This document shows positions 40,972-59,088 of a DNA stretch of 64,000 nt, piece by piece. A program made the position numbers and the translations under genes. The notes beneath the pieces were generated by a model. It worked only from the letters and a program-made list of their open reading frames with translations, was not told the DNA's origin and ran no database searches. Within the stretch, counting starts at the first letter, position 1; each line of letters starts with the position of its first letter. The stretch is from Candidatus Altiarchaeales archaeon. GTDB lineage: Archaea; Altiarchaeota; Altiarchaeia; IMC4; SCGC-AAA252-I15. The stretch is taken from assembly GCA_014727915.1 (NCBI GenBank), contig WJMO01000007.1, forward strand, positions 33,773 through 97,772, written 5' to 3'.

Positions 40972-41931
40972 ATGGACCTTGACAAGTTGGACAGGAGGAT
41001 ACTCTACCACCTTAGCCTGGATTCCAGGAAGTCCGCAAGGGAGATCGGCAGGGAAGTGCGCGCATCCAAGGAGACCGTTAACTACCGGATAAAACGACTG
41101 GTAAATAAGGGAGTCATCAATAATTTCTTCACGTTGATGAACCTCTCATCGCTTGGATACGAGTACTACCAGGTCTTCCTGAAGATGCGCGACAACACCC
41201 CAACCACTGACAAACGCATTATAAGATTCCTCGTGGAAGACAGTAATTGCTGGAATGTTAGGTCGCTTGAGGGCGTATACGAGGTTTCCTTCACCTTCAT
41301 CGCTGAGAACCCCGGGTCGATGTGGGATTTCCTCCGGAGGTTGAACGAGAAGTTCGGAGACCACATAACAGAGGATTCAACACATACCATATTAGAGACG
41401 TATAAGATGCACCAGGTATTCTACGCTAGCAGGACGTCTAGGATGACGTCCATGAGACACTATGACATCGAAAAGAACGATTGTGACGGTCTGGACATGA
41501 GGATCATCGAGCTCACATCCAACAACGCCAGGGTTAAGGTGTCAGATATAGCAGACAGGTTAGGGGAGCCAAGCCAGAAGATCGCCTATCGGATGGAACG
41601 TCTGAGGGATGAGGGGGTGATCGTCCTTTATTCGTTCGACATGAACTACCATATGCTGGACATGGAGTCGATAATGATATGCATCTCCCTCAAGGACATG
41701 GGGTCATTCGATAACATACTCCATTTCTTTGACGCAACTAACACTTCCAGCTACGGGTACAAGCTGCTGGGCAGATACGACATATCCGTTGAGTTGCAGA
41801 TCAGGAACCCAAAGATGTTCAGGGACATCATCGGCGAATTCAAGAGAAGGTTCAACGGCGCATACTCGGATTATGACATATTCAGGACGACCCAGAGATT
41901 CCTCCTAGAGAAACCGATAATGCCTGCGTGA
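40972..41931 (+). CDS. Tandem (duplicated) Lrp/AsnC transcription regulator
   Basis: Two HTH+RAM units: LDKLDRRIL...VNYRIKRL and LDMRIIE...IAYRMERL; GxY[DE] motifs. Confidence 0.9.
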   Translation: MDLDKLDRRILYHLSLDSRKSAREIGREVRASKETVNYRIKRLVNKGVINNFFTLMNLSSLGYEYYQVFLKMRDNTPTTDKRIIRFLVEDSNCWNVRSLEGVYEVSFTFIAENPGSMWDFLRRLNEKFGDHITEDSTHTILETYKMHQVFYASRTSRMTSMRHYDIEKNDCDGLDMRIIELTSNNARVKVSDIADRLGEPSQKIAYRMERLRDEGVIVLYSFDMNYHMLDMESIMICISLKDMGSFDNILHFFDATNTSSYGYKLLGRYDISVELQIRNPKMFRDIIGEFKRRFNGAYSDYDIFRTTQRFLLEKPIMPA

Positions 41932-41972
41932 GCAGTAGTATAGTTTAAGCACCGTGGCAGCCAAGACACTAT

Positions 41973-42065
41973 TTGAAAAATATTCAACATAAAATCTATC
42001 ATTTTTTGTTTATTTTATAAAAAAATTTGTTTTTGATAAAAAATCAACCCGAAAGGTTTTTATAT
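41973..42065 (+). promoter_or_regulatory. Lrp-type 15-bp palindromes plus BRE/TATA of the large operon
   Basis: TTGAA-AAATA-TTCAA (41973-41987), TTGAT-AAAAA-ATCAA (42033-42047), then CGAAAGGTTTTTATAT about 20 nt before ATG 42086. Confidence 0.7.
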
Positions 42066-42085
42066 CGTTGGTCGTTACTCCCTAA

Positions 42086-42757
42086 ATGGTGACAGAGATG
42101 CTACGTAGTATCGAAAGCTTGAAGGGAGAAACGCTTGAGGCGGTCGACGGGCCCATAGGAACCGTCAAAGAATGCTACTTTGAAGACGACACATGGAATA
42201 TAAGATACCTTGTGGCAGACACGAGAAAATGGCTGCCTGGGAGGAAAGTCCTGATAATACCGGATGCGCTCAAGGTTGCTGAAATCGACTCCGAAAGGAT
42301 GCCCGTGAAGATGACGAAGGAACAGATCGAGAACAGCCCGGGAATAGAAGCCGACAAGCCGGTCTCACGGCAGGACGAGGAGAGGATAAGCGAATACTAC
42401 AAGTGGCCGCCCTATTGGAGCAACGGAGATGACCCGAACCTCAGGAGCACCGACGAGATAGTCGGTTATGACGTGTTCTCAAAAGAGGGGAAGTCCGGGG
42501 TGGTCGACGACCTAATAATAGACCTGAGAGATGGGATCATCAGGTATTTCGTGGTCGTCTTGGATGGTGCCAGCGGAAAGAGGGTGCTCTTATCCCCGGC
42601 ATGGGACAGCATAGAACACAACAAGAAGAAGGTGGTCTTAGATGTCGAGAGGGAGAAGATGTTGAAGGCAAGGGAGTACATGCCTGACACCGCAGTTAAC
42701 CGGGAATACGAGGAGGCGCTGTTCGACTACTACGGAAGGCTAAAGTATTGGATATGA
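42086..42757 (+). CDS. Tandem PRC-barrel protein (copy 1)
   Basis: AVDGPIG...WNIRYLVADT..WLPGRKVLI; LRS..EIVGY; FDYYG..YW. Confidence 0.9.
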   Translation: MVTEMLRSIESLKGETLEAVDGPIGTVKECYFEDDTWNIRYLVADTRKWLPGRKVLIIPDALKVAEIDSERMPVKMTKEQIENSPGIEADKPVSRQDEERISEYYKWPPYWSNGDDPNLRSTDEIVGYDVFSKEGKSGVVDDLIIDLRDGIIRYFVVVLDGASGKRVLLSPAWDSIEHNKKKVVLDVEREKMLKAREYMPDTAVNREYEEALFDYYGRLKYWI

Positions 42758-42769
42758 AAGAGGGAAGAG

Positions 42770-43135
42770 GTGGAAACGATGAAGAAAGGGAATAGGAAGG
42801 ATGAGAATCGAAGGACCAGAGTGGGGAAATACATCAGGCAAGTCCAGCATAGGCTAGGATATGACAGCTGGCGTAAGGCCTACGTGGCATTCAGAGCCGT
42901 GATAATGGCTTTGAACGACCGTGAAGCGGTCAGGACGAAGAAGAGCTTCTTGGAAGAGGTAGACAGGAACATAGGCGATAGCATGGAAACTGAGCATGTG
43001 GTTTCGGGAGTGTTCAACGTGTTGGAAGAGAAGATAGCGAACGGGGAGGTCATGGATTTCACCCCAAACCTTTCAAGCGACCTATCAGAGTACTGGCCGA
43101 TAATTGAGAACAGAGAAGGAGGTGTTTGCGCATGA
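42770..43135 (+). CDS. DUF2267-like protein, apparently internally shortened
   Basis: AY.AFRAV..AL.DR; VFNVLEEKIANGEV...L..YWP. Confidence 0.6.
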   Translation: METMKKGNRKDENRRTRVGKYIRQVQHRLGYDSWRKAYVAFRAVIMALNDREAVRTKKSFLEEVDRNIGDSMETEHVVSGVFNVLEEKIANGEVMDFTPNLSSDLSEYWPIIENREGGVCA

Positions 43136-43476
43136 GAAGCACGGTGGAGTACATAGGTTGGATATCCGAACTTGAGAAGAGCGCCAGGAACAGGATCTCA
43201 AAGGATGACAGACCCCGAAGAAAGGGGATTTTGCAGCACACCTGGGAGGGGATACCCTTCCTCCGGAAGAACAACGGGGAAAAGCTGCAGATCAGAAGAC
43301 CCACAAAGATCCTCTGGAGGATATGCGACGGAAAGCGGAACGTCAGGGAGATATCAGAGGACCTGGCCACGTCGATCGGAATTTCCGACAAGCCAGGAGA
43401 GGTCGAGTCCGCAGTAATAGAGAGCATAAGGAAGCTGAACAGAGCAGGGCTGATCGAAGTCGGTAAAAACAGTTAA
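43132..43476 (+). CDS. PqqD/RRE-like winged-helix protein
   Basis: ILWRICDGKRNVREISEDL...IRKLNRAGLIE. Confidence 0.75.
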   Translation: MRSTVEYIGWISELEKSARNRISKDDRPRRKGILQHTWEGIPFLRKNNGEKLQIRRPTKILWRICDGKRNVREISEDLATSIGISDKPGEVESAVIESIRKLNRAGLIEVGKNS

Positions 43477-43491
43477 AAAAGAGGTGAGATA

Positions 43492-43785
43492 ATGGCAAAC
43501 GTAAAGAAGAGGAACGGTTCAACAGAACCATATGATGCGGAGAAGGTGAAGGCGTCCGTAAAGAAGGCCTTCATCGACGCTGGAGAGACGATCGAGGACA
43601 GGAAGGATCTGATAGAGAAGATCGCGAAGGAAGTGACGGACGACGTTAAGGAGAAGGGCGAGGAGACAACGGAGGCAATAAAGGACAAGGTAGTCTCGTC
43701 CCTGGACGGTGCTGAGTCCAAGGCAGGTGAAGCCTGGAGGAAGTTCGACAAGAAGTACAAGTCCGTAAAAAATGAGGAGAGATAA
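43492..43785 (+). CDS. Stand-alone ATP-cone protein
   Basis: VKKRNGSTEPYDAEKV...TTEAIKDKV. Confidence 0.88.
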   Translation: MANVKKRNGSTEPYDAEKVKASVKKAFIDAGETIEDRKDLIEKIAKEVTDDVKEKGEETTEAIKDKVVSSLDGAESKAGEAWRKFDKKYKSVKNEER

Positions 43786-43996
43786 CGTTTTGCGGTGCAG
43801 CGAGCTCACCGGCCTCTCATGCCCCTACGTGGCGGTGGGAAGCGCCAGCAAGGTGAAGCATGACGTTTTGGCCCACGCCAACGAAGAACACCCTGACATC
43901 GCGAGTACGATGAGCAGTAGAGGGGTCGATAACATGATGGAGAAGGCAGAGAGGATTCTCGGAAAGGGAGGTGATGAAGGTGTTAAGGAGCCTTAA
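43772..43996 (+). CDS. DUF1059-like small metal-binding protein
   Basis: C-x7-C ... HANEEH. Confidence 0.65.
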   Translation: MRRDNVLRCSELTGLSCPYVAVGSASKVKHDVLAHANEEHPDIASTMSSRGVDNMMEKAERILGKGGDEGVKEP

Positions 43997-44667
43997 GGAC
44001 CTGGAAGGGCATGTGATGGAGGCAAAGGACGGCGAAGTAAGGTCTGTGGATGACTTCCTCTTCGACGATCTTGCGTGGACTGTGAGGTACCTGGTGGCGA
44101 ACACGGGAGAGTGGCTTCCGGAGAGGCAGGTGCTGATATCGCCGGTCGCGCTGGGCAAGCCCCCCAAGGGGGGGGTGGTACCAGAGGAAGCTGCCTGTGA
44201 ATCTCACGAAGGAGCAGATAGAGAAGAGCCCAAGCATAGAGGCGGATAAGCCGGTCAGCCGCCAGTACGAGGCGGAGCTGATACCCTATTACGGTTGGCC
44301 CATCTACTGGCAGACTGAGGAGGGAGACCCCCATCTTAGGAGCATGAAGGAGGTATTCGGCTACAACCTCAAAGCCTTGGACGGGGAGATCGGCCATGCC
44401 GAAGACCTGATAATCGATGACGAGACCTGGACTGTCAGGTACATGGCAGTGGACACGAGCAACTGGAACCCCCTGAGCAAGAGCGTTCTGATCTCGACGG
44501 GATGGATAACCGGGATAGACGCGAACTCAAGGTTCGTAAACGTGGACGTGACAAAAGAGCAGGTCGAGAATTCTCCGGAGTACGACCCAGGGCAGCCGAT
44601 AAACCGGGAGAATGAGACGGTACTGTTCGACTACTATGGCAGAGCCAGATACTGGGAGGGTAAGTGA
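43980..44667 (+). pseudogene. Tandem PRC-barrel protein (copy 2), frameshifted at a C6-AA-G8 tract
   Basis: ORFs 43971-44249 and 44197-44667 are consecutive parts collinear with copy 3; frame breaks at 44160-44175. Confidence 0.85.
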
Positions 44668-44672
44668 ATAGG

Positions 44673-45182
44673 ATGAAAGCTTTGATAATGAGCGAGGAAG
44701 GTTTCGAAGACAGTGAAGTGCTGGCCCCATACTACCGCCTACTTGAGGCGGGTTTGGAGGTGGACGTGGCTGCCATCAGCAAAGGCCCGATAACCGGGAA
44801 ACACGGGTACCAGGTGGAAGCGAACACGACCTTCAAGAAGGTCAGGCCTGGAGATTATTCGGCCCTCATAATACCGGGAGGCAGGGCTCCTGAGAGGGTG
44901 CGGATCTCCAAGGATGCTCTGAGGACCGTGAAACAGTTCATGAAGGACGATATGCTGGTGGCCAGCATATGCCACGGACCCCAGGTGATGATCTCAGCGG
45001 GCGTGTTGGACGGCCGTAAGGGCACCGGGTGGAAGGGGATACAGGACGACATGAAGGCCGCGGGGGTGCGAGTCATGGACAAGGAGGTCGTGGTCGACGG
45101 GAACTGGATCTCGTCAAGGCAGCCCGAGGACCTGCCCGCCTTCAACCGAGAAATAATGAACGCAATAGGAATCGTAAAATAA
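44673..45182 (+). CDS. pfpI: PfpI/DJ-1 family protease/glyoxalase
   Basis: GFEDSE, IIPGG, ASICHGP, SRQPEDLPAF. Confidence 0.95.
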   Translation: MKALIMSEEGFEDSEVLAPYYRLLEAGLEVDVAAISKGPITGKHGYQVEANTTFKKVRPGDYSALIIPGGRAPERVRISKDALRTVKQFMKDDMLVASICHGPQVMISAGVLDGRKGTGWKGIQDDMKAAGVRVMDKEVVVDGNWISSRQPEDLPAFNREIMNAIGIVK

Positions 45183-45203
45183 AAGGATATGAGGTGATTT
45201 GAA

Positions 45204-45398
45204 ATGTTTGACAACCACACGTACAATCTGATGGCTCAGATCGTGGAGGAGCATCAGAGCCTGTGGAGGATAAAGAACCACTACAAGAACGAAGCGGGAG
45301 ACTGCGACGACTGCAAGAGGTTCTGGGATAAGATGGAGAAGGACAAGGAAGGCCACATACGGGAGATAGCAGAGCTCCTGAAAACCCACTTAGGATAA
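45204..45398 (+). CDS. Small two-helix ferritin-like protein
   Basis: EEH..LWRI...Y..EA..CDDC...DKEGH. Confidence 0.65.
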   Translation: MFDNHTYNLMAQIVEEHQSLWRIKNHYKNEAGDCDDCKRFWDKMEKDKEGHIREIAELLKTHLG

Positions 45399-45408
45399 GG
45401 AGGAGGGC

Positions 45409-46086
45409 ATGGTTTTTAAATACGCGAGGATCAGCCGCGTGGAAAGGCAGGTGTTGGAAGTCCCGGAAGAGCCCAGGCTATTGGATGTGATAAAGCGCAG
45501 GAGGAGCGTTAGGGAGTTCGAGCCCACTGCGAGGTTGTCGGATTATGATCTGGACTATCTTATTGAGGCTGCCAGGTGGGCTCCCTCCGCCAGGAACCTG
45601 CAGCCGATAGAGTATGTCATAATAAGATCCCCGGATAGGAAGGGGATGCTGGCCGAAGCTTCGAGACAGTCTCAGCCGGAGCAGGCCTCAGCCTGCATAC
45701 TTGCGGTGGGGGATTTATGGAGGGCCAGCATGGTAGGGGATGTGAGCTCCCATGACGTCACGACAAGGGAGAAGGGGTTGAACTGGTTCATATACATGGA
45801 CTGTGCTGCGGCGGTGCAGAACATGCTCTTGGCTGCGAACTCAAGGGACATCGATTCCCTTTGGATCAGCAGCTTCGACGACAGCAGGGTAAAAGAGGAT
45901 TTCGGGCTGCCTGAAAGGTTCCACCCCCTTGCGATAGTATGCCTGGGTAGCAGGAGACAGGAGCCGGAAACCCCCCCAAAGAGGGATAAAGAGGAGATAG
46001 TCCACTTCGAGGAGTGGAAGCCCAAGGAAGTGGACGATGCTTACCTTGAGTATAGCGGAAGTATAAACGAGGACAGTGCACGATGA
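45409..46086 (+). CDS. Nitroreductase family protein
   Basis: RRSVREF, WAPSARNLQP, AAVQNMLLAA. Confidence 0.92.
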   Translation: MVFKYARISRVERQVLEVPEEPRLLDVIKRRRSVREFEPTARLSDYDLDYLIEAARWAPSARNLQPIEYVIIRSPDRKGMLAEASRQSQPEQASACILAVGDLWRASMVGDVSSHDVTTREKGLNWFIYMDCAAAVQNMLLAANSRDIDSLWISSFDDSRVKEDFGLPERFHPLAIVCLGSRRQEPETPPKRDKEEIVHFEEWKPKEVDDAYLEYSGSINEDSAR

Positions 46087-46874
46087 GCAACGCAGAAGGG
46101 ACGGAGGAGATAGGAAAGGCTTTGGCCAAGGGTAGGAGGCAGGTGCTGATGTCGATCATCTTGTGGGGAGGGTTTCTGCTGTCAATATTCGTGGTCTTTG
46201 GTCTGATAATGGCGGGTAGGGGGGAGGGACCGCCTGGAACACGCGAGGTTGTGACCTCTACTACGATCAATGATAAGAGTACAACGACTACGGCAGAATA
46301 TGATAAGGGCACGGATTCGGAATTTGATGAAGATAATGGAACAGAGGATGTCAACACTCTTGGAGACACTGGAGTGAACGCGCCATGCTGCGAGACGGAC
46401 GCCGACTGCATCGCGGTTAAAGCAGACTGCTGCGGATGCCAGTTGGGTGGCAGGCAGAAGGCGGTATCCAGGTTCGAGCGTGCGGAATACCTGAATGATT
46501 TGAACGGAAGATGCGATATCACGGAATGCCCTTTCGTGAACTCGACTCACAGGACCTGCTATTCGACGCCCATGTGCATAAACGGATCCTGTGTGATGGT
46601 GTTCCAGGAGGATGCCGTGAGGGGCTTGGAGAGGGATAGCTGCCGTTTCCAGTGCATGATCAAAGGATATGATAACGGTTTCTGCAGGGACAACGGGATG
46701 GAATGCAGGATGAACGACGAGATAGTATACGAGTACGGTAACAGGTTCTGCGAGGACCGGCGGTTGGACATATGCTGCTGCAGCAACAGAACCTATGCGG
46801 GGGAGGTCGACGTGGAGTATGCTATCGAGGCCGCTCAGCAGAGGTACTATGAAAAGCCGAGCGTAGAACCATAG
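46083..46874 (+). CDS. Membrane-anchored Cys-cluster protein
   Basis: TM, Thr linker, CETDADC...DCCGC..GG module and a second Cys module ending CCC. Confidence 0.75.
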   Translation: MSNAEGTEEIGKALAKGRRQVLMSIILWGGFLLSIFVVFGLIMAGRGEGPPGTREVVTSTTINDKSTTTTAEYDKGTDSEFDEDNGTEDVNTLGDTGVNAPCCETDADCIAVKADCCGCQLGGRQKAVSRFERAEYLNDLNGRCDITECPFVNSTHRTCYSTPMCINGSCVMVFQEDAVRGLERDSCRFQCMIKGYDNGFCRDNGMECRMNDEIVYEYGNRFCEDRRLDICCCSNRTYAGEVDVEYAIEAAQQRYYEKPSVEP

Positions 46875-46903
46875 ACAATTCGCTAAAAGATGGAGGTGAT
46901 ATT

Positions 46904-47542
46904 ATGGCGACCGAGAAGCAGAAGAAGGCAGCCAAGAAGAACATAGAGAAGGCACAGAAGAAGTGGCAGACCATGAGCAAGAAGGCTAGGAGCAGGGCTC
47001 AGCCGACCGGCAGGTCAAGGGCCAAACCAGGATCCAATGAGGATACCGGAGACTACTACCACGTGGAAGTCAGGGACAAGAACCAGTTCACATCGTTCAG
47101 GACCCACGACATAGGACGTAAGGGCCACACGCAGAGGGTCGCGGGAAGGCGCAGGAGCGGAAGCTGGGACACCCAGAAATGGCTCATAAGCAAGGAAGAC
47201 GCCCATTTGAGAGGCAATAAGCTTGTGGCCGACGACGATGACGTGAAGGATGTCTTCGACAACCTGGGGTCAACCCCGAAGAAGGTGGGAGGCGACCGGT
47301 TCAAGGCCAAGCCAAGGCCTGACGTGCCAGAGAAGGAAAAGCCGACGAAAGCCCAGAGGAAAGCCAGGCGGCAGAACATCAGGAAGGCTCAGAAGAGCTC
47401 CTCTGACAGGAGGGAATACGAGAAGAGGACTAAGAAGGAGTTGAACGCCCTGGCCAGGAAGCGAGGCATCGAAGGCTACACCCACATGGGCAAGAAGGAG
47501 CTCATACGGGAGTTGAGGAAGATGACAAGAGTTAGAGGCTAA
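46904..47542 (+). CDS. Very basic protein with C-terminal Rho-N/HeH nucleic-acid-binding domain
   Basis: Lys/Arg-rich; KKNIEKAQ and RQNIRKAQ repeats; TKKELNALARKRGIEGYTHMGKKELI. Confidence 0.75.
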   Translation: MATEKQKKAAKKNIEKAQKKWQTMSKKARSRAQPTGRSRAKPGSNEDTGDYYHVEVRDKNQFTSFRTHDIGRKGHTQRVAGRRRSGSWDTQKWLISKEDAHLRGNKLVADDDDVKDVFDNLGSTPKKVGGDRFKAKPRPDVPEKEKPTKAQRKARRQNIRKAQKSSSDRREYEKRTKKELNALARKRGIEGYTHMGKKELIRELRKMTRVRG

Positions 47543-47569
47543 TAAAAAAAAGATATGAGGTGATTTGAA

Positions 47570-48247
47570 ATGTTTAGAAGCATGAACGATTTGAACGGGT
47601 ATATGGTAGAGGCGATAGACGGGGAGGTCCGGTCCGTCGACGACATCCTCTTCGACGATATCCTGTGGAATGTAAGGTACCTGGTGGCGAACACGGGAGA
47701 GTGGCTTCCGGGAAGGCAGGTGCTTATAGCGCCTGAAGCGAGCCAGCAACCCGACTGGCGGTCTAGGAAGATACCCGTGGCTCTGACGAAGGAGCAGATA
47801 GAGAACAGCCCCCCGTTGGAGATGGACAAGCCGGTCAACAAGCAGTGGGAGCAGAAGTTCGTCCCATACTACGGTTGGACCACTTACTGGCTGGACATCG
47901 ACGGGGACCCGCATCTGAGGAGCATGAGCGAGGTCAAAGGGTATGATATCATGGCCTTGGACGGAGAGATCGGCAAGGTAGAAGACCTCATAGTCGACGA
48001 CGAAGACTGGAGGATAGGGTATATGGTGGTTGACACCAGCAGCTGGAACCCGCTGAGCAGGAAGACCATGATACCGCCGGAGTGGATAACCGGGATAGAC
48101 GAGAAGGAGGATACCGTCCTGGTGGACGTGAAGCAATCCCAGGTGAAGGACGCGCCCGAATACAACGCATCCGAACCTATCAACAGGGAGGTGGAGACCG
48201 TATTGTACGACTACTACGGGAAACCACACTACTGGGCCAACCTATGA
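47570..48247 (+). CDS. Tandem PRC-barrel protein (copy 3)
   Basis: Collinear with copies 1 and 2; 37-bp identity to copy 2 (47675-47711 vs 44085-44121). Confidence 0.9.
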   Translation: MFRSMNDLNGYMVEAIDGEVRSVDDILFDDILWNVRYLVANTGEWLPGRQVLIAPEASQQPDWRSRKIPVALTKEQIENSPPLEMDKPVNKQWEQKFVPYYGWTTYWLDIDGDPHLRSMSEVKGYDIMALDGEIGKVEDLIVDDEDWRIGYMVVDTSSWNPLSRKTMIPPEWITGIDEKEDTVLVDVKQSQVKDAPEYNASEPINREVETVLYDYYGKPHYWANL

Positions 48248-48417
48248 GCGGGAAAATGCCCTGGTCGAAGAGCGACTATCCGGATTCCATGAAGAACCTG
48301 GATGTTAAAACGAGGGAGAAGGCTATCGAGATAGCCAACTCCCTTCTCGAAGACGGATACGAGGAGGGTCGGGCGATCTCGATAGCCATATCAAAAGCAA
48401 AAGAAAAGAAGAGGTGA
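48244..48417 (+). CDS. YdaT-like (DUF2188-associated) small stress protein
   Basis: MPWSKSDYPDSMKNL...REKAIEIANSLLEDGYEEGRAISIAIS. Confidence 0.8.
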   Translation: MSGKMPWSKSDYPDSMKNLDVKTREKAIEIANSLLEDGYEEGRAISIAISKAKEKKR

Positions 48418-48424
48418 AAAAAAC

Positions 48425-49051
48425 ATGGATATCAAACAGATGGTATACGCGGCGGTCTTACTGTCAGCACTGTCTCTGTTCATGAGTACAGTGACTTTTT
48501 TTGAGATAACCGGCGTGGACGAGACAACAGTCAAGGAGCTGAAGGACGTTAGGAAGAAGACGAGAGAGGATGTTATGGAAGCAAACCAGGAGATAAGGGA
48601 GGATATAGCCTTGACGCAGGCCAGGATACGCCTTATGGCCTTGAGGGCTGAAGTCGCCGCGGAAGGGTCCTACGATGAGACCGTTGACGAGGTTGAGAGC
48701 ATAAGGCGGAGCCTTAACCGCGCCTACGCTAACGCTGCGGAGGAATCCTATGAGGCCTACTTGGAAGTGGATTCGGACCTTGAGACCTTGGAGAACCAGC
48801 TGAGAGAGGGAAGCGCGGAGTCGGTGAACAGCCTCGAGAACAGCATAGGAACGATCGAGGGGCATATCGAACCGAATGAGATGCAGGAGTGCATCGAGGC
48901 GGGAGGCGCCTGGGTGCAGTTCCCGAACGCATGCGCGGACTCATGCGCCTACGAGAGGAATGAAGGCATAATGTGCGCGCAGGTCATAACGGACGGTTGC
49001 GAATGCGGAGAGAACATGTGCTGGAACGGGTACACCTGCACGCCAAACTAA
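48425..49051 (+). CDS. Membrane-anchored helical-bundle protein with C-terminal 8-Cys module
   Basis: N-terminal TM, acidic helices, CIEAGG.W..FPNACADSC...CWNG. Confidence 0.75.
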   Translation: MDIKQMVYAAVLLSALSLFMSTVTFFEITGVDETTVKELKDVRKKTREDVMEANQEIREDIALTQARIRLMALRAEVAAEGSYDETVDEVESIRRSLNRAYANAAEESYEAYLEVDSDLETLENQLREGSAESVNSLENSIGTIEGHIEPNEMQECIEAGGAWVQFPNACADSCAYERNEGIMCAQVITDGCECGENMCWNGYTCTPN

Positions 49052-49067
49052 AGGAGGTGAACAGGAA

Positions 49068-50492: not shown

Positions 50493-50495
50493 TCC

Positions 50496-51687: not shown

Positions 51688-51733
51688 GATTCGACCAATC
51701 GTTGACTTTTAAGGACTTCATGGAGGTGATAAG

Positions 51734-52924
51734 ATGGAAGGGCTGATGAATCTATGGGGTGAAGCTGCTATAACCTCCCTGGGGTTCTTCTGGAAGTCGG
51801 GTTGGGCGTTCATCCTGGGATACTCCATAAGCGCGATGATACAGGCTTTCGTTCCAAGGTCCCGGTTGACAAGGCACATGGGATCAGATGACATAAAGAG
51901 CATATCGCTCTCGACGGTATTCGGCGCTGCCTCATCATCCTGCTCCTTCGCCGCATTGGCGACTGCAAGGTCCCTGTTCCAGAAAGGGGCTCATTTCATA
52001 ACAGCGGTCGCGTTCATGTTCGCCTCCACCAACCTTGTGATAGAGCTGGGAATCCTGATACTCGTGTTCCTGGGATGGCAGTTCCTGGCAGCTGAGATAA
52101 TAGGGGGGCTAGTGCTGATAGTCATAAGCAGCGTCTTGATACGCCTGACCTACCCCCGGAAGTGGGTCAGAGAAGCGCGAGAGAAGCTTGAGGTGCGGTC
52201 ACATGGTGGAGATGAAGACTTTGACTGGAAGAAAAGGATAGGGAACATGAGCGGCTGGTATCTCGCAGGTGACAAGTTCATAGGAGAATGGAGGATGGTA
52301 TGGGAGGACATACTGATAGGGTTCACCATCGCAGGGTTCGTGGCGGTTTTCGTCCCGGCCGGGTTCTGGGGTGACCTTTTCCTCACGGACCAGGTGGGCG
52401 TGCTCCCACAGTGGGCGATCACATTGGAAAACGCGATGATAGCCCCGATCGTGGCTGCCGCGACATTCATAGGCTCCATGGGGAACATACCCTTGGCCAC
52501 GGTACTGAACTCCAACGGGGTCTTGTTCGCCGGGATAATGGGTTTCATATACTCCGACCTCATGGTCCCACCCCTGGTGAGGGTTAACGCGAAATACTAC
52601 GGTTGGGGGCTGGCCTTGTACGTCGCGGGCATAATGTACGTGAGCATCGTGGCAACCGCACTCATACTTCACGGCATATTCGCATTTTTCTCTCTGACAC
52701 CGGAGAGCGCGAAGGAGGTTTCCGATATCGTGACTTTCAAGGTCGACTACACCTTCTGGCTTAACATCCTGTTCATCCTGGTGGCTGTAGCGTGGGCGGC
52801 GCTCGCCGGGAGGCACGAAGGAGAGGGCATGGAGATGGAAACGTCGGGTAAGCTAAAGAACGCCGTGTCGCTGGCGGCTGGTCTGACAGTAGTCGGGGGT
52901 GTTATCATATACCTTATGATCTAG
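51734..52924 (+). CDS. DUF318-family permease (second subfamily)
   Basis: GAASSSCSFAA, FASTNLVIELG, SMGNIPLA. Confidence 0.88.
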   Translation: MEGLMNLWGEAAITSLGFFWKSGWAFILGYSISAMIQAFVPRSRLTRHMGSDDIKSISLSTVFGAASSSCSFAALATARSLFQKGAHFITAVAFMFASTNLVIELGILILVFLGWQFLAAEIIGGLVLIVISSVLIRLTYPRKWVREAREKLEVRSHGGDEDFDWKKRIGNMSGWYLAGDKFIGEWRMVWEDILIGFTIAGFVAVFVPAGFWGDLFLTDQVGVLPQWAITLENAMIAPIVAAATFIGSMGNIPLATVLNSNGVLFAGIMGFIYSDLMVPPLVRVNAKYYGWGLALYVAGIMYVSIVATALILHGIFAFFSLTPESAKEVSDIVTFKVDYTFWLNILFILVAVAWAALAGRHEGEGMEMETSGKLKNAVSLAAGLTVVGGVIIYLMI

Positions 52925-52925
52925 G

Positions 52926-53783
52926 ATGGAATACGATAATCCAAGAGGGGGCAGGGACATTGTCTATGTCCTTAAGGAGACGGCAGTGAATGCCGTTGAG
53001 AACCAGATTCCAATGCTTTCCGCAGCCCTCAGCTTCTATATCCTGGTCTCTCTCGCACCGCTCATGCTGATACTCTTGAACCTTATGGGATACGTCTTCA
53101 ACCTTGAAGACCCTGAGAACGCGATCCTGGCATTCTTCAAGGAGTACATGATATCCTCCGGGGAACTGCCCTTCATGACCGTGGGCGAGAACTACGAGCT
53201 TTTGCAGGGCAACACCGCATTCACGCTGTTAGGTTTGGGTATCTTATTCTGGACCTCGACCAGGGTGTTCAACCACCTCCAATACTCGCTGAACAGGATA
53301 TGGGACGTTGACGAGCGGGCCAGGCTAGGACTACTAGTAAAGAAGAGGCTACTGTCTTTCCTCCTCATATTGGCACTGGGTTCGGCGATCTTCGTGTTCT
53401 CAACCGTCCAGGGAGTTCTGATAGAATTCGAAGGACATGCCTCGGAATACCTCGGCATGAACGCATACAGTTTGCAGTTCCTGTCCAATATCATCTCCAT
53501 GGCTATGACAGCAGCCCTTTTCTACATGCTCTTCAAGTTCATACCGGACGCGCACGTACCTGGCAAGAGCGCCCTCTGGGGGGGCCTGATAGCTTCTATG
53601 CTCTTCTTCGCGGGGCAGATCATCGCAGCATACTATTTCAGCCTTGCAGGCATAGCATCCGCCTATGGGGCTGCGGGCTCCCTGATAGTGTTCCTCCTGT
53701 GGGTGTACTATTCATCACAGATATTCCTGGTCGGAGCCCAGTTCACAAGGTCGTATTCCTCATCCAGTGAGGTGAAGTCATGA
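52926..53783 (+). CDS. YihY/BrkB family membrane protein
   Basis: AALSFY..SLAP, SLNRIW, YGAAGSLIVFLLWVYYS. Confidence 0.92.
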   Translation: MEYDNPRGGRDIVYVLKETAVNAVENQIPMLSAALSFYILVSLAPLMLILLNLMGYVFNLEDPENAILAFFKEYMISSGELPFMTVGENYELLQGNTAFTLLGLGILFWTSTRVFNHLQYSLNRIWDVDERARLGLLVKKRLLSFLLILALGSAIFVFSTVQGVLIEFEGHASEYLGMNAYSLQFLSNIISMAMTAALFYMLFKFIPDAHVPGKSALWGGLIASMLFFAGQIIAAYYFSLAGIASAYGAAGSLIVFLLWVYYSSQIFLVGAQFTRSYSSSSEVKS

Positions 53784-55162
53784 GGAACCTGCTCCCCCAC
53801 ATAGGATTCATGCTGAAGACAGCAGGGTTTTCCACCATGATTCCAGTGGCAGCAGCCATAGTCCATGGCGAGAACTCTTCTTTTATGGGACTGGCAGCCA
53901 CCGCCCTGGCATTCGTGGCTCTTGGATACTCATTCGACGTATTCGATAAGAAGAAGGATCTCACGTACTGGGACGCCTGCAGGATAGCGACAGTAACATA
54001 CGTGCTTTTAGGGTTTGTCGGAGCCATGCCGTATATGCTCTCTGTCGGATCTGATGAGCCAATACTATCGCCTTCGGACTCGGTGTTCGAAAGCATATCA
54101 GGGTTCACGACAACCGGGCATACGATGATAGAAGAGCCCGGACGAATGAGCCGTTCTACCGCCCTTTACAGGGACATGACACAGTACCTTGGGGGGGTGA
54201 TAATAATACTCGTATTCATCGTGTTCTTCACGCCAAAGCATGGGAGGTTCGACCTGGAGAAGGCGTTCGGTCTGGAACAAGCCAAGAACGTGCTGAGGAA
54301 GACTTTCGTGAAGGTGCTCAACATATACCTGATTTTGTTACTCATGCTATCAGTCATGCTGGTAGTGACAGGTCAAGGCATCTTAGATTCTTTCTCTTAC
54401 ATCCTGGGCGGGCTATCCACTGGGGGCTTCACCCCTGGCGAGTCCGATATCGGGATAATGGAGGGAACCGTGCTCTTGACGGCCATGGTGGCTGGTTCCG
54501 TTAACTTCCTGGTCTTCCACCACGTCACGAGTGGAAAGATCAAGGAAGCGCTCAGGGAGGAGCTGCCATACCTGATTGGGATCATCCTAGCAGCGTCGAT
54601 CCTGTCATACGCGGCCTTCGGCTACGGGTTCTTCACTTCCCTGTTCCAGAACACAAGCGCCGCAACAACGACAGGCTTCTCCGCCCTCGACGTCTCGGTT
54701 CAGCCGGAAGGCTTCAAGGCACTCCTCATACTCCTCATGATAGTGGGCGGTTCAAGCCTTTCGACTTCGGGCGGGATAAAGATATGGCGCGCCATACTGC
54801 TCGCTAAGGCAGCCTATGTTAGCTTGCATAACAGATTCGGCAAAAAGCAGAGGAAAGTCATGCTATGGAACAAACCCGTGAAAGGGGAGATGGCCGGGAG
54901 AGCGAGGAACCTCTTCGCAGCGATGATGGGAGTGGTGTTCTTTTCATCGGTGCTTTTCGCCCTGCAAGGATACGATCCCGTCGATTCCGTTTTCGAGACG
55001 GTCAGCGCGGTCTCGACCACGGGGTTAACCGCAGGCATCACCAACCCAGCCATGGCAGCGCATCTGAAATGCGTTATGGTGGCCCTAATGATATTGGGCA
55101 GACTCGAGATTATGCCCTTTCTAATCGTTTTAAACAAGAATCCAGCGGGTGGAAAGGGTTGA
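53780..55162 (+). CDS. trkH: TrkH potassium-uptake membrane protein
   Basis: FESISGFTTTG, STGGF, TTTGF, STSGGIK, STTGL, LGRLE. Confidence 0.92.
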   Translation: MRNLLPHIGFMLKTAGFSTMIPVAAAIVHGENSSFMGLAATALAFVALGYSFDVFDKKKDLTYWDACRIATVTYVLLGFVGAMPYMLSVGSDEPILSPSDSVFESISGFTTTGHTMIEEPGRMSRSTALYRDMTQYLGGVIIILVFIVFFTPKHGRFDLEKAFGLEQAKNVLRKTFVKVLNIYLILLLMLSVMLVVTGQGILDSFSYILGGLSTGGFTPGESDIGIMEGTVLLTAMVAGSVNFLVFHHVTSGKIKEALREELPYLIGIILAASILSYAAFGYGFFTSLFQNTSAATTTGFSALDVSVQPEGFKALLILLMIVGGSSLSTSGGIKIWRAILLAKAAYVSLHNRFGKKQRKVMLWNKPVKGEMAGRARNLFAAMMGVVFFSSVLFALQGYDPVDSVFETVSAVSTTGLTAGITNPAMAAHLKCVMVALMILGRLEIMPFLIVLNKNPAGGKG

Positions 55163-55196
55163 TTATGAAAGTGTCGATTTTTTTGAGGTGATTTGT

Positions 55197-56288
55197 ATGA
55201 TAGAGGATGTTTTGGGACGGGTTAAGCAGCAGTATCAGGCTGTCCAATCTGATACAAGAGTGAGCGAGGTAGTGGGCGTAATGTCCAAGCAGGGACTGTA
55301 TGCTGTCCCGGTCTTGGACGGTAATACGTATGTGGGTTTGATAACGGCATCAGATATCGTGGCCTCAAGGAATCCGACCAGCACCAAGGCCAGGACCATC
55401 GCGTCAAGGGTTCCGTTAGTACCTAAGGACTCCGGAGTCGGGGAGGTCTGCGAGCGCATGTGGAGGAACAGCCTCATCGCCGTGCCGGTCGGTGAAGGTG
55501 ACAGGATCGAGGGGTTGATAACATTCTGGGACATCCTCGAGTGGGCGGTCGGAAAGGAGGATTTAAAAGACTATCTTATCTCTGACGTGGACATTGGTGA
55601 ATTCCCTGAGATACCCGCTGACGAGGACCTGGACTCCGCGCGTGTGAATCTTAGGACGGAGGACATAAGCAAGCTGGTAGTCGGGGACGAGCGCATGAAA
55701 CGGCTCATTGACGAGAAGGAATACGCAGAGAGGATATCCAGGATACCCAAGAGGAGGGCCAAGACTGGTGAGAGGAGGGGCGAGAAGGTCAAGATGCTGG
55801 CGTCGGATGCGAAAAACATTTCCGAGAGGATACTGGTGCACGCCAGAAGAACCGACGAGCTAGGCGGGGTATTGGAGAGGATGATAGGGAACCGTGTGAC
55901 ACACGCAAAGGTGGATGAGGGGATAGTCACATACCGGGACATCCTAAGGTTCCTGGCCGACACCGAAGAGGAAGACAAGACCCGGAGCCAGAAGGTCAAG
56001 GTGATATGCAAACATCAGCTGCCGGAGAGTGTCAAATCCCGCATGGACTCGGAGCTGCGTGATTTCGCCGGATACTATGCGGATAAGCACGGCCTAGAGA
56101 GCCTGAAGGAGCTGAAGATAAACGTGAAGGAGACCAACCGAGGGGGTTCGAACCGCACCTATGAGATGAAGGCTAACATGGTGACCGACAGGGGAAGGCT
56201 TCACGCTAAAAAGACGGGGTGGGATGCGATAAACGTGTTCAACGAGCTCGTTGCCGCTCTGAAGAAGTCAATAAGGAGAGGTGATTGA
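55197..56288 (+). CDS. CBS-domain protein with C-terminal HPF/RaiA-like domain
   Basis: Four CBS-like repeats; C-terminal LKINVKE...YEMKANM...LHAKKTGWD...FNEL...LKKSI; GAGGTGA RBS before ATG 55197. Confidence 0.75.
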   Translation: MIEDVLGRVKQQYQAVQSDTRVSEVVGVMSKQGLYAVPVLDGNTYVGLITASDIVASRNPTSTKARTIASRVPLVPKDSGVGEVCERMWRNSLIAVPVGEGDRIEGLITFWDILEWAVGKEDLKDYLISDVDIGEFPEIPADEDLDSARVNLRTEDISKLVVGDERMKRLIDEKEYAERISRIPKRRAKTGERRGEKVKMLASDAKNISERILVHARRTDELGGVLERMIGNRVTHAKVDEGIVTYRDILRFLADTEEEDKTRSQKVKVICKHQLPESVKSRMDSELRDFAGYYADKHGLESLKELKINVKETNRGGSNRTYEMKANMVTDRGRLHAKKTGWDAINVFNELVAALKKSIRRGD

Positions 56289-56815
56289 ATATGAAGTATC
56301 TGAGCGAGATAGCGGGTAAGAAAGTCTGCGACGTGAACGGCGTGGACGTTGGAGAGGCAGAGGATTTGGAGATATCATTGAGCGAGGACGATATATTCCT
56401 GAGGGTTAAAGGCGAGGCGATGAAGGAGCTGAGAGGCCGCAAGACGGAGTTCATCCCCATAAGGGAGATAGACTACGTCAAGGACCGTGTGTACCTGTAC
56501 AAGCGTCTCAAAGAGCTGAAGGGAATCGTCGAGGAGGTCTTCATGAGCAACACACCATCGTACAAGTGCATGGACCTCATAGGAAGGCTGGTCACATCGG
56601 ACAATGAGAAGGTAGGGAAGGTCGTGGACTTCGGAGTGGATAAGCAGGCGAACGAGGTCATGATGCTCATCGAAGGCCTCAAGGTCGAGGATGTGAGGGG
56701 CAAGAAGAAGGAGAAGATACCGGTGTTCGAGATCTCGGAGATCACCAGCAACATACGGTTGCAGCACGACTTCGAGACGCTTTCCAAGAGGATCGTGGAA
56801 AAAAGGAGAAGATGA
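56285..56815 (+). CDS. Tandem PRC-barrel protein (distinct type)
   Basis: LSEIAGKKV.D.NG..VG...D; DLIGRLV...KVGKVVD. Confidence 0.8.
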   Translation: MNMKYLSEIAGKKVCDVNGVDVGEAEDLEISLSEDDIFLRVKGEAMKELRGRKTEFIPIREIDYVKDRVYLYKRLKELKGIVEEVFMSNTPSYKCMDLIGRLVTSDNEKVGKVVDFGVDKQANEVMMLIEGLKVEDVRGKKKEKIPVFEISEITSNIRLQHDFETLSKRIVEKRRR

Positions 56816-58050
56816 AGGAGGGAGGATTGGCAGAGGATGATAAAAGACTTAGGAGAGACCTGGGGCTGAAGGAGGTCGTGTTCTTCGGGGTTGGAGTCAC
56901 GTTGGGCGCCGGGATATATGCGATTATAGGGGAGGCGGCTCTGGTCTCGGGCAACATGGTGTGGCTCTCGTTCCTGGTGGCTTCGTTCGTGGCGCTGCTG
57001 AGCGCGTTCTCATACGCTGAGCTGAGCTCACGGTACCCTGACGCGGGTGGCGAGTTCGAGTACGTCAACCAGGTTTTCGGCCGTTCGCCCGCGTTTGTGA
57101 TCGGGTTTCTGGTCGCTGTCACGGGCATAGTGGCAAGCGCCGCCATATCCATAAGCTTCGCAGAATACCTATCCGTAGTCTATCCATTGAACCGGACGGC
57201 AGCGGCTATCGGAATCATGCTGCTGATGGCGGCGGTCAACATCTCGGGGATAAAGCACTCCTCCAAGACCAACATGATAGCGACCGCGATAACGCTTGCG
57301 GGTCTGGTGCTGGTCGTTCTCTTCTCCATTCCAGACTTGGGAAGCGTCGACTATCTTGAGATGCCACCCTCGGGTTCAGTGGGCATACTGTCCGCGGGGG
57401 CTCTCATCTTCTTCGCCTACGTGGGTTTTGAAGACGTGGTCAAACTGGCGGAGGAGACCGAGAACCCCAGGGAGAACATACCAAAAGGCCTGATATTATC
57501 CAATCTGATAGTCATGGTTATCTACCTCATGGTGTCGCTCAGCCTCGTCAGCGTCATCGAATGTGAGGGTCTGGGAGGTGTTGAAGGGCCTCTGAGCCAT
57601 CTTATGAGGTCTAAAACAGGTTTTGTGGGAGCGTCTTTGATGGCGGTTTTCGCATTGTTCGCCACGTCCAACAGCATACTAACCAACGTGATAGCCACGT
57701 CCAGGATAGTCTTCGACATGGGCCGGGAGAGCACGATCCTTAAGCCTTTGACTTATCTGACTCCCGGGCTTGGCACCCCCTTGACAGGCACCCTGCTAAC
57801 TTCCGCGGCTATACTGGCGTTCATACTCATAGGGGACCTGAAGACCGTGGCTGCGTTGAGCAACATGTTCATATTCGCCGTCTTTTTCACCATAAACGTG
57901 ACAGCCATAGCCTCGAGGTTCAGGCCCGGGGAGGAGGCCAGGTTCAAAATGCCGCTTAACATCGGGAAGTTTCCGTTGATCAGCGTGGTGGGTGCTTTTT
58001 CAATACTAATGCTATTCATTTATAACCTGGGTAACCTGGGTTTTCCATGA
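56812..58050 (+). CDS. APC-family amino-acid permease
   Basis: GAGIY, YAELSSRYPDAGG, FFAYVGFE, EETENP. Confidence 0.93.
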   Translation: MKEGGLAEDDKRLRRDLGLKEVVFFGVGVTLGAGIYAIIGEAALVSGNMVWLSFLVASFVALLSAFSYAELSSRYPDAGGEFEYVNQVFGRSPAFVIGFLVAVTGIVASAAISISFAEYLSVVYPLNRTAAAIGIMLLMAAVNISGIKHSSKTNMIATAITLAGLVLVVLFSIPDLGSVDYLEMPPSGSVGILSAGALIFFAYVGFEDVVKLAEETENPRENIPKGLILSNLIVMVIYLMVSLSLVSVIECEGLGGVEGPLSHLMRSKTGFVGASLMAVFALFATSNSILTNVIATSRIVFDMGRESTILKPLTYLTPGLGTPLTGTLLTSAAILAFILIGDLKTVAALSNMFIFAVFFTINVTAIASRFRPGEEARFKMPLNIGKFPLISVVGAFSILMLFIYNLGNLGFP

Positions 58051-58056
58051 GGTCGG

Positions 58057-59088
58057 ATGGGTATGGTCGGGAAGAGGTCTGAGAGGCGGCGTTTCGGCAA
58101 GCTGGGTTTGGGCGTCAGCGCGGCATTGATACTGTTGGTGTTGTACTTCCTGACACCCTACGTTAACGGGTTCTTCCAAGCGCTCATACTATACGTCATA
58201 CTCAAACCGTCATATGACTGGCTGACGTTGAAGAGGGGGCAGGGGAGGAGCCTGTCAGCTTATATTGTTATAATGCTCTCCGTCTTCTTGATAATCATAC
58301 CGTTTTTCTTAGCTGCCAGCCTCGTCTTCAACGAGGTCCGGAACGCGGAGGAGACGATAGTCGCGGTTTTCAACGAGGCCTCGGACTACTTGGAGGTGGT
58401 GGATTCCGCCCTGGTTTCCGTCGACGTTACAGGTTTGTTGAGGGGGCAGATAGACTCGACCGCGTCCTTCATGAAGGGCATGCTCTCATCCTTTGTGGAG
58501 AGCCTCGCTCATTTCTTCATAAACATAACCATAACCTATTTCCTGCTCTATTATTTCCTGGTTGACGGAGGGAGGATAGGGGAGGAGATCCGGTCCATCA
58601 TACCCTTCAGCAAGAGGGACACCGAAGGCTTCATAACGGAGTTCAAGAACGTGACCTATTCGACGGTTATCGGCACTGGGGTGATAGCCTTCATACAGGG
58701 GTCCCTGCTGACGGTGGTGTTCTACCTTTTCGGCCTGCCTGCCGCGTTCTTCTGGGGTTTCATATGCTTCATACTGTCGGTCATGCCCGTCGTGGGAGCT
58801 CCCATCATATGGCTTCCCGCGGCGGTATCCCAGTTCCTGATAGGGGAGAACGTGGCTGGTCTGGGGGTGCTGGTGGGAGGCCTCATAATAAGCAGCGTGG
58901 ACAACTTCATAAGGCCGTTCATACAGAACAAGATCGGCAGGCTGCACCCGCTCACCACCCTTCTAGGGGTCATAATAGGCGTTCCCAACTTCGGCGTGAT
59001 CGGCGTCATCGTGGGGCCGCTGATAATATCCTACTCGATGATAACTATGAAGATCATCAGGGAAGAGTACATACAGGGAGACGCGTGA
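58057..59088 (+). CDS. AI-2E family transporter
   Basis: PVVGA..IWLP, VDNFIRP, LHP, GVIVGPL. Confidence 0.93.
   Translation: MGMVGKRSERRRFGKLGLGVSAALILLVLYFLTPYVNGFFQALILYVILKPSYDWLTLKRGQGRSLSAYIVIMLSVFLIIIPFFLAASLVFNEVRNAEETIVAVFNEASDYLEVVDSALVSVDVTGLLRGQIDSTASFMKGMLSSFVESLAHFFINITITYFLLYYFLVDGGRIGEEIRSIIPFSKRDTEGFITEFKNVTYSTVIGTGVIAFIQGSLLTVVFYLFGLPAAFFWGFICFILSVMPVVGAPIIWLPAAVSQFLIGENVAGLGVLVGGLIISSVDNFIRPFIQNKIGRLHPLTTLLGVIIGVPNFGVIGVIVGPLIISYSMITMKIIREEYIQGDA

Follow-up and report, generated by a model that had tools for sequence, protein, structure and literature searches.

A candidate stress-survival and ribosome-hibernation gene cluster downstream of a tandem Lrp/AsnC regulator in an Altiarchaeales archaeon

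Background

Ribosome-hibernation factors of archaea were described only in 2025-2026, in papers that treat their structure, nucleotide sensing and distribution rather than their transcriptional control or genomic surroundings (PMC13324472, PMC13454478, PMC13728122). The HibA/AHA family, described in 2026 (PMC13324472, PMC13454478, PMC13728122), combines four CBS domains with a C-terminal HPF/RaiA domain in P. abyssi, T. barophilus and Hfx. volcanii (PMC13324472, PMC13728122), and is reported to be a native archaeal family that 42-47% of archaeal species possess (PMC13324472, PMC13454478). The main texts of two of these papers, supplements aside, do not mention an operon (PMC13324472, PMC13728122); archaeal hibernation factor genes do form a polycistronic unit in the sriABCD operon of Methanosarcina acetivorans, which holds four CBS-tetrad paralogues only (PMC13454478). 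Here we describe a locus of a different composition in a 64,000-nt stretch of the genome of a Candidatus Altiarchaeales archaeon (assembly GCA_014727915.1, contig WJMO01000007.1, positions 33,773 to 97,772; hereafter the window, whose own numbering is used throughout). Between positions 42086 and 59088 one HibA gene lies among 25 unrelated genes in an operon-like run, downstream of a gene for a duplicated Lrp/AsnC regulator. An earlier reading of this DNA from its sequence only had taken the run for a stress and dormancy unit of a kind not previously described, and no such cluster was found in the literature, the HibA/AHA main texts (supplements aside) included.

In gene content the run resembles the general stress regulons of bacteria (sigma-B of B. 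subtilis, EcfG of Alphaproteobacteria, RpoS), with which it shares PRC-barrel, BON/OsmY, PfpI-type and HPF proteins and a presumed role in multiple stresses and stationary phase; Hsp20 in related archaea, and YbhB/PEBP in one of them (genome G027), extend the likeness. PRC-barrel genes are listed in a table of EcfG-dependent general-stress genes (PMC6599016), and are stress-induced in Nostoc, alongside BON and CsbD (PMC7660261). The bacterial regulons are scattered sets joined by promoters of an alternative sigma factor, whereas the genes described here are physically joined behind a promoter with a TATA box and B recognition element (BRE), where the candidate operator is of the Lrp type and a sigma factor is lacking. 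Since its host is an archaeon and its promoter is of the BRE/TATA type, the cluster is not a sigma-factor regulon, and the likeness is one of content only.

Archaeal Lrp/AsnC regulators (feast/famine regulatory proteins, FFRP), e.g. Ss-LrpB, act on neighbouring promoters through AT-rich palindromes of 13-15 bp. The regulator found here agrees with them in having a helix-turn-helix (HTH) of the HTH_AsnC type plus an effector domain, and in the presence of two TTG...CAA-type 15-bp palindromes, whole helical turns apart, beside the TATA box of the adjacent unit. It differs in that two complete Lrp units are fused in one 319-aa chain; its binding is predicted only.

An unbroken run of co-directional genes

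Judged from the listing of open reading frames (ORFs) and their spacing, all credible genes between 42086 and 59088 lie on the positive strand in an unbroken series. The approximately 27 consecutive genes of the sequence-only reading were counted as 26 genes in 27 ORFs, a frameshift in the PRC-barrel gene PRC_B accounting for the extra ORF. Most gaps are <=29 nt: spacers inside the run range from -53 to +29 nt with two exceptions only, one of 139 nt ahead of the ORF of the DNA glycosylase Fpg (151 nt if counted to the probable TTG start, 50911) and one of 46 nt ahead of 51734, where the gene for an ArsP_1-type permease begins. We consider it rather probable that the run is a co-regulated accessory cluster for stress survival and hibernation, expressed as one to three transcription units. 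The stress and hibernation theme is supported by gene content and by recurrent, reshuffled co-occurrence with HibA, DNA glycosylases, PfpI, Hsp20 and oxidative-stress proteins; co-regulation in this genome is supported by the layout and by a genome-unique pair of operator-like sequences (see below).

The recurrent GAGGTGA ribosome-binding sites pointed out earlier held up on counting. The window contains 28 copies against 12.17 +/- 3.19 expected, a number that none of 100 shuffles reached, and 16 of these lie on the positive strand between 43481 and 56284, i.e., inside the run. All but one of the 16 are placed just 5' of a start codon, the exception (49785) being inside the BON gene. A core Shine-Dalgarno (SD) sequence was present at <=20 nt from the start in 17 of 29 gene rows examined, with HibA as the 18th after correction of its start, and some of the internal genes without an SD are joined by ATGA-type overlaps. 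Corrected starts were TTG 50911 for Fpg and ATG 48244, 55197 and 56291 for the DUF2188-like protein, HibA and the PRC-barrel protein PRC_D, respectively. About 25 nt are near-identical at 45178-45206 and 47544-47572 (A-rich, then GATATGAGGTGATTTGAA, then ATG), ahead of the genes g64 and PRC_C, whose products both begin with MF; a translation-initiation region seems to have been duplicated here.

Three antisense ORFs of 246-319 aa on the negative strand (47270-48229, 48941-49681 and 49916-50695) overlie real positive-strand genes; the strong purine skew of the coding strand probably gives rise to them as artefacts, and between 42 and 52 kb the GC skew is +0.17 to +0.27 and the AT skew +0.21 to +0.29. 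On the other side of the regulator, 39144-40651 hold a second ArsP_1 permease and a GDT1-family cation antiporter on the same strand, upstream of a small ORF and the Lrp gene, so that the co-directional run actually begins near 39.1 kb.

The ribosome-hibernation factor HibA

The gene at 55197-56288 (+) encodes a CBS tetrad followed by an HPF/RaiA domain, as seen with profiles, phmmer and structure models. Its ATG start at 55197 is preceded by an SD at 55185-55191, and a 363-aa protein with the same start is on record. A full-length phmmer match (residues 27-375 to chain residues 12-368, E 1.9e-17) joins it to PDB chain 9sr9_H; 9SR9 is P. abyssi HibA according to the data-availability statement of PMC13324472. 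The basic loop of CBS3, including the GE-x2-GEK motif, aligns between the two proteins. The N-terminal part matches Pfam CBS (7.8e-17, 2 stretches), and at the C-terminus (56019-56279) Pfam Ribosomal_S30AE (PF02482) reaches 15.1 bits (E 0.053), which is below the cut-off. A phmmer search over 1.84 billion representatives gave 735 matches at E <= 1e-3, 105 at E <= 1e-10 and 6 at E <= 1e-30. Sixty full-length homologues, chosen among 150 listed, were aligned; CBS was matched in all 60 and PF02482 in 23, and the profile of the 60 matches HibA at 2.3e-108.

The AlphaFold2 model of the whole protein (pLDDT 88.1) resembles the CBS tetrads SriA 9znf_4, MJ1225 and AMPK-gamma (TMt 0.60-0.78), and its comparison with the PDB (library to 2026-04-08) returned CBS-tetrad matches only, HibA itself not being among them. 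Models of the C-terminal domain have the element order E-H-E-E-E-H. When this domain was folded alone (pLDDT 84.3) and compared with the PDB by Foldseek, the first 35 listed matches were all HPF/RaiA/pY/YfiA chains, with a best E of 8.8e-7 and TM of 0.6-0.75.

Given the full-length homology with 9sr9_H, the family profile and the HPF fold at the C-terminus, the gene is, by homology and modelled structure, a HibA/AHA ribosome-hibernation factor, and its product is predicted to bind ribosomes and to preserve them in stationary phase. The HPF that had been read as bacterial-type is therefore real as a hibernation factor but is the C-terminal domain of a native archaeal HibA/AHA protein and not a bacterial import. 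The copy is divergent, 21-29% identical to most homologues, and differs from the described HibA/AHA genes also in being embedded in a 26-gene cluster with a PRC-barrel gene next to it. ARC-P and ARC-A were considered as PRC and ATP-cone proteins and rejected, as section 5 of the preprint shows both to be CBS proteins.

The search of the phylum took in 61 genomes, all that the collection holds (G000 being the genome of the window), which makes this a small phylum. In all 61, ORFs of ~260-280 aa (Sri/CM-like tetrads) match the profile of HibA in its CBS part. Full-length HibA, with the HPF part, was found in three only (G000, G001 and G027), which fits the published anti-correlation of hibA and sri. 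Genome G005 has an HPF-only ORF of 108 aa, 42% identical to the HibA C-terminus, on its contig C269 (L035 9593-11484), between a DUF5698/DUF2179 membrane protein and a LigD 3'-phosphoesterase-domain protein.

The gene next to HibA, PRC_D (56291-56815, +; 174 aa; Pfam PRC 4.5e-12), is its neighbour also in the metagenome contig L039 (117-1746), where HibA is 42% and PRC_D 59% identical to the copies described here and the two genes are 11 nt apart; in G001 and G027 a PRC_D-like gene is on another contig than HibA. Scanning metagenomes with the HibA protein as sole query gave no match. Complex prediction for HibA and PRC_D gave 'no answer' (score 0.00), which is evidence for neither side.

Regulator, operator-like palindromes and promoter

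The gene heading the run, at 40972-41931 (+), encodes the 319-aa tandem Lrp/AsnC regulator. It has the HTH of the Lrp/AsnC (FFRP) family in two stretches (PF13404, AsnC-type HTH, 3.3e-21). Of two full-length Lrp/AsnC structures, PDB 7fby aligns with residues 2-141 and 2dbb with residues 171-298; since each half aligns to a whole Lrp structure, this is a true tandem duplication. Pfam AsnC_trans_reg gave no match in the protein, and the effector/oligomerisation (RAM-like) domain is covered in both halves by the structures (chain residues 11-149 of 7fby and 7-135 of 2dbb). The earlier statement that a duplicated Lrp/AsnC gene heads the run was thus confirmed by structure alignment as two complete HTH plus effector-domain units.

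A 154-nt AT-rich spacer (41932-42085) separates the Lrp gene from the first gene of the run. It contains two 15-bp operator-like palindromes of the pattern TTGA-W7-TCAA, TTGAAAAATATTCAA at 41973-41987 and, 60 bp further on, TTGATAAAAAATCAA at 42033-42047, the second of which ends 3 nt before the BRE-like/TATA element. The pattern occurs twice in the window, against 0 expected, and three times in the 1.81-Mb genome. The third copy was rejected as a second regulon site, since it lies inside a 420-aa coding ORF (histidinol dehydrogenase-like by eye), and those at 41973 and 42033 are the sole intergenic copies in the genome. The two palindromes look like operators, and the tandem Lrp is the protein most likely to bind them.

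The BRE-like CGAAAGG and the TATA box TTTTTATAT are found at 42050-42065 (+), with the TATA centre ~25 nt from the ATG at 42086. No SD precedes this ATG, which, together with the TATA distance, agrees with a leaderless transcript for the first gene. Archaeal operons usually begin in this way and continue with genes that have an SD or overlap their neighbour. The TBP/TFB-type promoter proposed in the earlier reading is supported by this layout, with its TATA box, apparently leaderless first gene and SD-led or overlapping internal genes.

Distribution among relatives

The co-distribution of the cluster genes is patchy and involves the same few genomes of the phylum. The whole cluster is in this genome only and sub-modules are in 3-4 of the 61 genomes. 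By gene, the counts are 4 for the PRC-barrel family PRC225, 5 for the stand-alone ATP-cone protein, 3 for g64 and 9 for PRC_D-like genes; the BON protein was found in G000 alone among 41 genomes searched. G001 has the order Cys-rich protein, HibA, aldo-keto reductase, UDG, DUF72, Cys-rich protein, ATP-cone, PfpI, ferritin-like, desulfoferrodoxin, rhodanese, ferredoxin, DUF2769. G027 has DUF2769, BofA, hemerythrin, Kazal-like Cys-rich protein, HibA, PEBP (YbhB), UDG, three ORFs and Fpg on its contig 7, and ATP-cone x2, Hsp20, g116-like, SDR, ATP-cone, PRC x2, g208-like, dodecin, ATP-cone, g64 and PfpI on contig 39. G005 has ATP-cone, PfpI, g64, Rho_N protein, PRC and DUF2188-like protein. Synteny across relatives therefore consists of partial clusters in G001, G005 and G027 and the complete arrangement in none, and these versions add Hsp20, superoxide reductase, ferritin, hemerythrin and UDG to the stress theme that had been proposed. 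Relatives of the Cys-rich protein g263 are directly upstream of HibA in G001 and G027 (L007 10579-11262 and L034 15630-16295), and the one in G027 matches Kazal_1, a Kazal-type inhibitor domain (5.1e-8).

In 20 relatives the DNA of the cluster is largely unmatched, scattered pieces excepted, and both flanks are conserved; the downstream flank, a gene of 170 aa at 59151-59663, shows a DNA identity of 72-76% in four relatives and 69% in a fifth. The tetranucleotide composition of the cluster correlates with that of the genome at r 0.91 (19th percentile of 196 windows), and its GC content is 53.5% against 54.3%. The genome is a 13-contig draft of 1.81 Mb, 90.6% complete, with the window on contig C4. 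An assembly or binning chimera, in which the segment would be foreign to this archaeal genome, is extremely improbable: the draft state and the one homopolymer frameshift, in PRC_B, could speak for it, but archaeal core genes flank the segment on the same contig (TBP at 35169-35717 and the conserved gene at 59151-59663), SD usage and composition match the genome, and homologous sub-modules are present in relatives of the same phylum.

PRC-barrel proteins and their bacterial neighbourhoods

The PRC barrel, absent from the sequence-only reading, is the commonest family in the run, with four genes. Besides PRC_D these are PRC_A (42086-42757, +; 223 aa, two PRC-barrel domains, Pfam PRC 2.2e-10), PRC_B (43971-44667, +) and PRC_C (47570-48247, +; 225 aa, Pfam PRC 7.4e-10), which are the three PRC225 paralogues, PRC_A being placed in the family by alignment. 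A change of frame by 1 nt, in a C6/G8 homopolymer run (~44160-44175), splits PRC_B into the ORFs 43971-44249 and 44197-44667; this may reflect a real pseudogene, phase variation or a mistake of the assembly.

Scanning with a pattern made from the PRC225 alignment yielded 23 loci, mostly bacterial (Ignavibacteriota, Acidobacteriota, Chloroflexota and others) and some from Thermoplasmatota; the bacterial homologues are ~38-43% identical and the Thermoplasmatota copies 35-38%. In a quick maximum-likelihood tree of 27 rows, which omits the frameshifted PRC_B, the truncated copy of G005 and the loci L028 and L030, neither of which has a single high-scoring segment pair of >=190 residues, archaeal and bacterial rows are intermixed with at least three label changes. 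This per-gene phylogeny, made for PRC225 only, has a base that is not resolved and indicates no donor. A laterally acquired mosaic island, bacterial in parts and cohesive through co-transfer and not through a common programme, would agree with this mixture and with the identities of the bacterial copies, as well as with the unmatched DNA of the cluster and the BON protein in 1 of 41 genomes. We regard it as unlikely. The composition is native-like, so that any transfer would be old, the tree names no donor, and HibA is an archaeal family; transfer would moreover be compatible with co-regulation, so that this explanation overlaps with that of a co-regulated cluster.

The neighbourhoods of PRC225 homologues (22 loci) comprise 146 ORFs within 2.5 kb, 24 PRC ORFs having been removed from 170. 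Their Pfam tally, which has no matched background and is thus suggestive only, includes BON 4, Hsp20 4, Ribosomal_S30AE (HPF) 3, AI-2E 2, LigD_N 2, ABC1 2, MCRA 2, PfpI 1, BrkB 1 and Usp 1; the BON, Hsp20 and HPF genes in bacterial neighbourhoods agree with the stress theme. A hidden Markov model (HMM) from alignment A3 gave weak HPF leads among the neighbour ORFs, of which Pfam confirmed HPF in 3 of 10, and a local HMM from alignment A4 found no bacterial HPF among them. At two loci of Acidobacteriota (L015 13244-14922 and L022 9857-11566) PRC225, an ORF of 74-76 aa and an HPF of 138 aa share one strand within ~0.8 kb, and at a locus of Fibrobacteria HPF is within 2 kb of PRC225.

Transcription units

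No run of five or more T was found in the intergenic spacers between 42086 and 55162. After the last gene a 62-nt convergent spacer contains T5 and T7 runs with further T4 between them (59107-59132, +), an oligo-T stretch that is likely the terminator closing the run. There is no room for internal promoters or terminators in 42086-50759 and in most of 50911-59088. Scans for sigma-70-type promoters (22 sites against 13.7 expected) and for hairpin terminators (10 sites against 12.8 expected) are of types not applicable to archaea. A search for sequencing runs with 42000-51999 listed none. From spacing and signals we infer one to three transcription units; a single 17-kb transcript, its induction by stress or starvation and its control by Lrp are predictions.

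Several observations weigh against a co-regulated cluster and would agree with independent operons or single genes that came to lie side by side by chance or transfer, each with its own promoter, with no common regulator and with 'stress' as a loose label. The 139-nt gap holds a TATA-like CTATAAAAG at 50884-50892, 23 nt from the Fpg start, and a T7 run (55178-55184) lies in the 34-nt spacer between TrkH and HibA, so that separate units are possible; A-rich TATA-like stretches also precede several internal genes. In the gap, a strong SD of Fpg is located at 50895-50902, and transcription starting from CTATAAAAG would cut it off. Homologues of the Lrp regulator occur in 3 of the 61 genomes and in none of the module-holding relatives G001, G005 and G027, so that Lrp control cannot be a conserved feature and Lrp is not co-distributed with the modules; the homologue in G059 is on a contig of only 3 kb, which makes its neighbourhood uninformative. 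The two halves of the cluster are on different contigs in G027 (C39 and C7), and since no relative has the whole set the parts are separable. As to the label itself, the transporters are not stress-specific (ArsP, APC, AI-2E and TrkH have no obligatory stress link), several 'stress' assignments rest on the names of families of obscure biochemistry (PRC225, DUF2267, BON, g64), the DUF2188 and Rho_N matches fall under the Pfam cut-offs, and of the three HPF cases in the PRC225-neighbour tally two come from closely related Acidobacteriota.

We nevertheless hold independent units to be somewhat unlikely. Most internal spacers (<=29 nt or overlaps) are too small for promoters, the internal A-rich stretches are too near the start codons to leave room for a transcription start 5' of the SD, the rare genes turn up together in one set of 3-4 genomes out of 61, and the palindrome pair is unique in the genome.

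Proposed mechanism

For a co-regulated cluster we propose the following course. The promoter at 42050-42065 would start a leaderless mRNA at 42086, beside the two palindromes, to which the tandem Lrp/AsnC protein would bind. The transcript would cover at least 42086-50759, a first block with stress proteins that are small and cytoplasmic (the three PRC225 paralogues, DUF2267, ATP-cone, PfpI, nitroreductase, BON and dodecin) and with Cys-rich envelope proteins. Full or partial read-through would probably extend it into the second block, 50911-59088, with Fpg, four transporters, the membrane protein YihY, HibA and its neighbour PRC_D. Going by what is known of the families, HibA would silence and protect ribosomes, Fpg would repair oxidised bases, PfpI and the nitroreductase would detoxify or deglycate, dodecin would buffer flavin, and the remaining products would adjust ions, solutes and the envelope.

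A more specific version, a dormancy programme in which the double Lrp senses nutrient or energy status and releases one or two long polycistrons, and in which the PRC225 paralogues, PRC_D and the ATP-cone protein are unrecognised partners of HPF-type hibernation factors, with the link of PRC225 to HPF found also in bacteria, appears decidedly unlikely. The co-regulated cluster would place HibA in an operon-like setting with ~25 other survival genes, beside a candidate regulator and a genome-unique operator-like pair, and would offer a concrete and testable model of how an archaeon without sigma factors may gather the genes of a general stress response or resting state. A further outcome is a short list of uncharacterised families that accompany hibernation factors in archaea and bacteria alike, namely PRC225, PRC_D, stand-alone ATP-cone proteins, g64 and the Cys-rich proteins of the envelope. 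The organism is uncultured, and only a single genome has the complete arrangement.

Other genes of the cluster and its surroundings

Of the stress families named earlier, PfpI, BON, dodecin, Fpg, YihY and TrkH were recovered by Pfam and YdaT/DUF2188 at sub-threshold level only; metal storage, also part of the proposed kit, dropped out, as no metal-storage gene was verified in the run. All the genes that follow are on the positive strand. Ahead of the regulator, a small Cys-rich ORF of 80 aa with a hydrophobic N-terminus and no family match (40727-40969) ends 2 nt before the Lrp gene, and a TATA-like GATATAAAAG is located ~26 nt upstream of its GTG start. PRC_A is followed by a DUF2267 protein (42770-43135; Pfam 4.6e-9), by g116, a 116-aa protein with weak PqqD/winged-HTH-like matches and a homologue in the G027 cluster (43126-43476), by the stand-alone ATP-cone protein of 97 aa (43492-43785; Pfam 5.3e-10) and by a 74-aa ORF of no family and uncertain gene status, with a likeness to DUF1059 by eye only (43772-43996). 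After PRC_B come the PfpI/DJ-1 family protein, which has the sequence ICHGP (44664-45182; Pfam 8e-55), and g64 (45204-45398), a conserved 64-aa protein of no named family, for which an Atlas search gave a nameless 64-aa family and a weak rubrerythrin lead.

The next genes encode a nitroreductase-family protein (45409-46086; Pfam 4.6e-29), g263, which by its translation is a membrane-anchored Cys-rich protein (46083-46874), and a very basic protein of 212 aa (46904-47542). At the C-terminus of the latter Rho_N matches below threshold (23.2 bits, cut-off 24.9; 6.6e-5), and G005 has a 70% identical homologue; an Atlas search with this protein gave nothing firm (best score 0.80). The DUF2188-like protein of 57 aa (48244-48417; 18.9 bits against a cut-off of 22), whose start overlaps the PRC_C stop as ATGA, has a 76% identical homologue in G005. 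Then follow g208 (48425-49051), with an N-terminal hydrophobic segment, a Glu-rich middle and a Cys-rich C-terminal domain, and its paralogue g165 (49068-49565), with the same C-terminal domain; this domain of ~55 aa belongs to no family, and the G027 copies are 56-57% identical there. The OsmY-like protein with three BON domains (49581-50252; Pfam 1.8e-39, 3 stretches) shows by eye no hydrophobic signal-peptide stretch at its N-terminus. The first block ends with dodecin (50274-50492; Pfam 3.1e-23) and an 87-aa membrane protein (50496-50759) that matches NCBIfam NF037947, 'holin_4', at 74.6 bits against a cut-off of 70; no phage context is found near this 'bacteriophage holin' match.

The Fpg/Nei DNA glycosylase (50911-51687; Pfam Fapy_DNA_glyco 3.8e-27, H2TH 8.8e-24) begins, from TTG 50911, with M-PELPEVE, i.e., with Pro directly after Met, as a member of the Fpg/Nei family. 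The classical Fpg zinc finger has four cysteines. The C-terminal 'finger' region of the present protein (51600-51687) has two only (...EECPND...YYCPKHQ...). The rest of the second block consists of the ArsP_1-type permease (51734-52924; Pfam 8.2e-53), the YihY/BrkB membrane protein (52926-53783; Pfam 1e-47) and a TrkH-family cation transporter (53780-55162; Pfam 5.7e-31) ahead of HibA, and, after PRC_D, an APC-family amino-acid permease (56812-58050; Pfam AA_permease_2 2.4e-39) and an AI-2E/PerM-family transporter (58057-59088; Pfam 5.9e-43).

Elsewhere in the window, archaeal markers are, besides TBP, an archaellin-type gene, NikR, a FlaI-like ATPase and an SMC protein; mcrA was not found in the genome. 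At 401-11143 of the window a FlaI/VirB11-type ATPase precedes several very large ORFs (693-1078 aa) that match no family; the locus may encode a pilus or surface structure.

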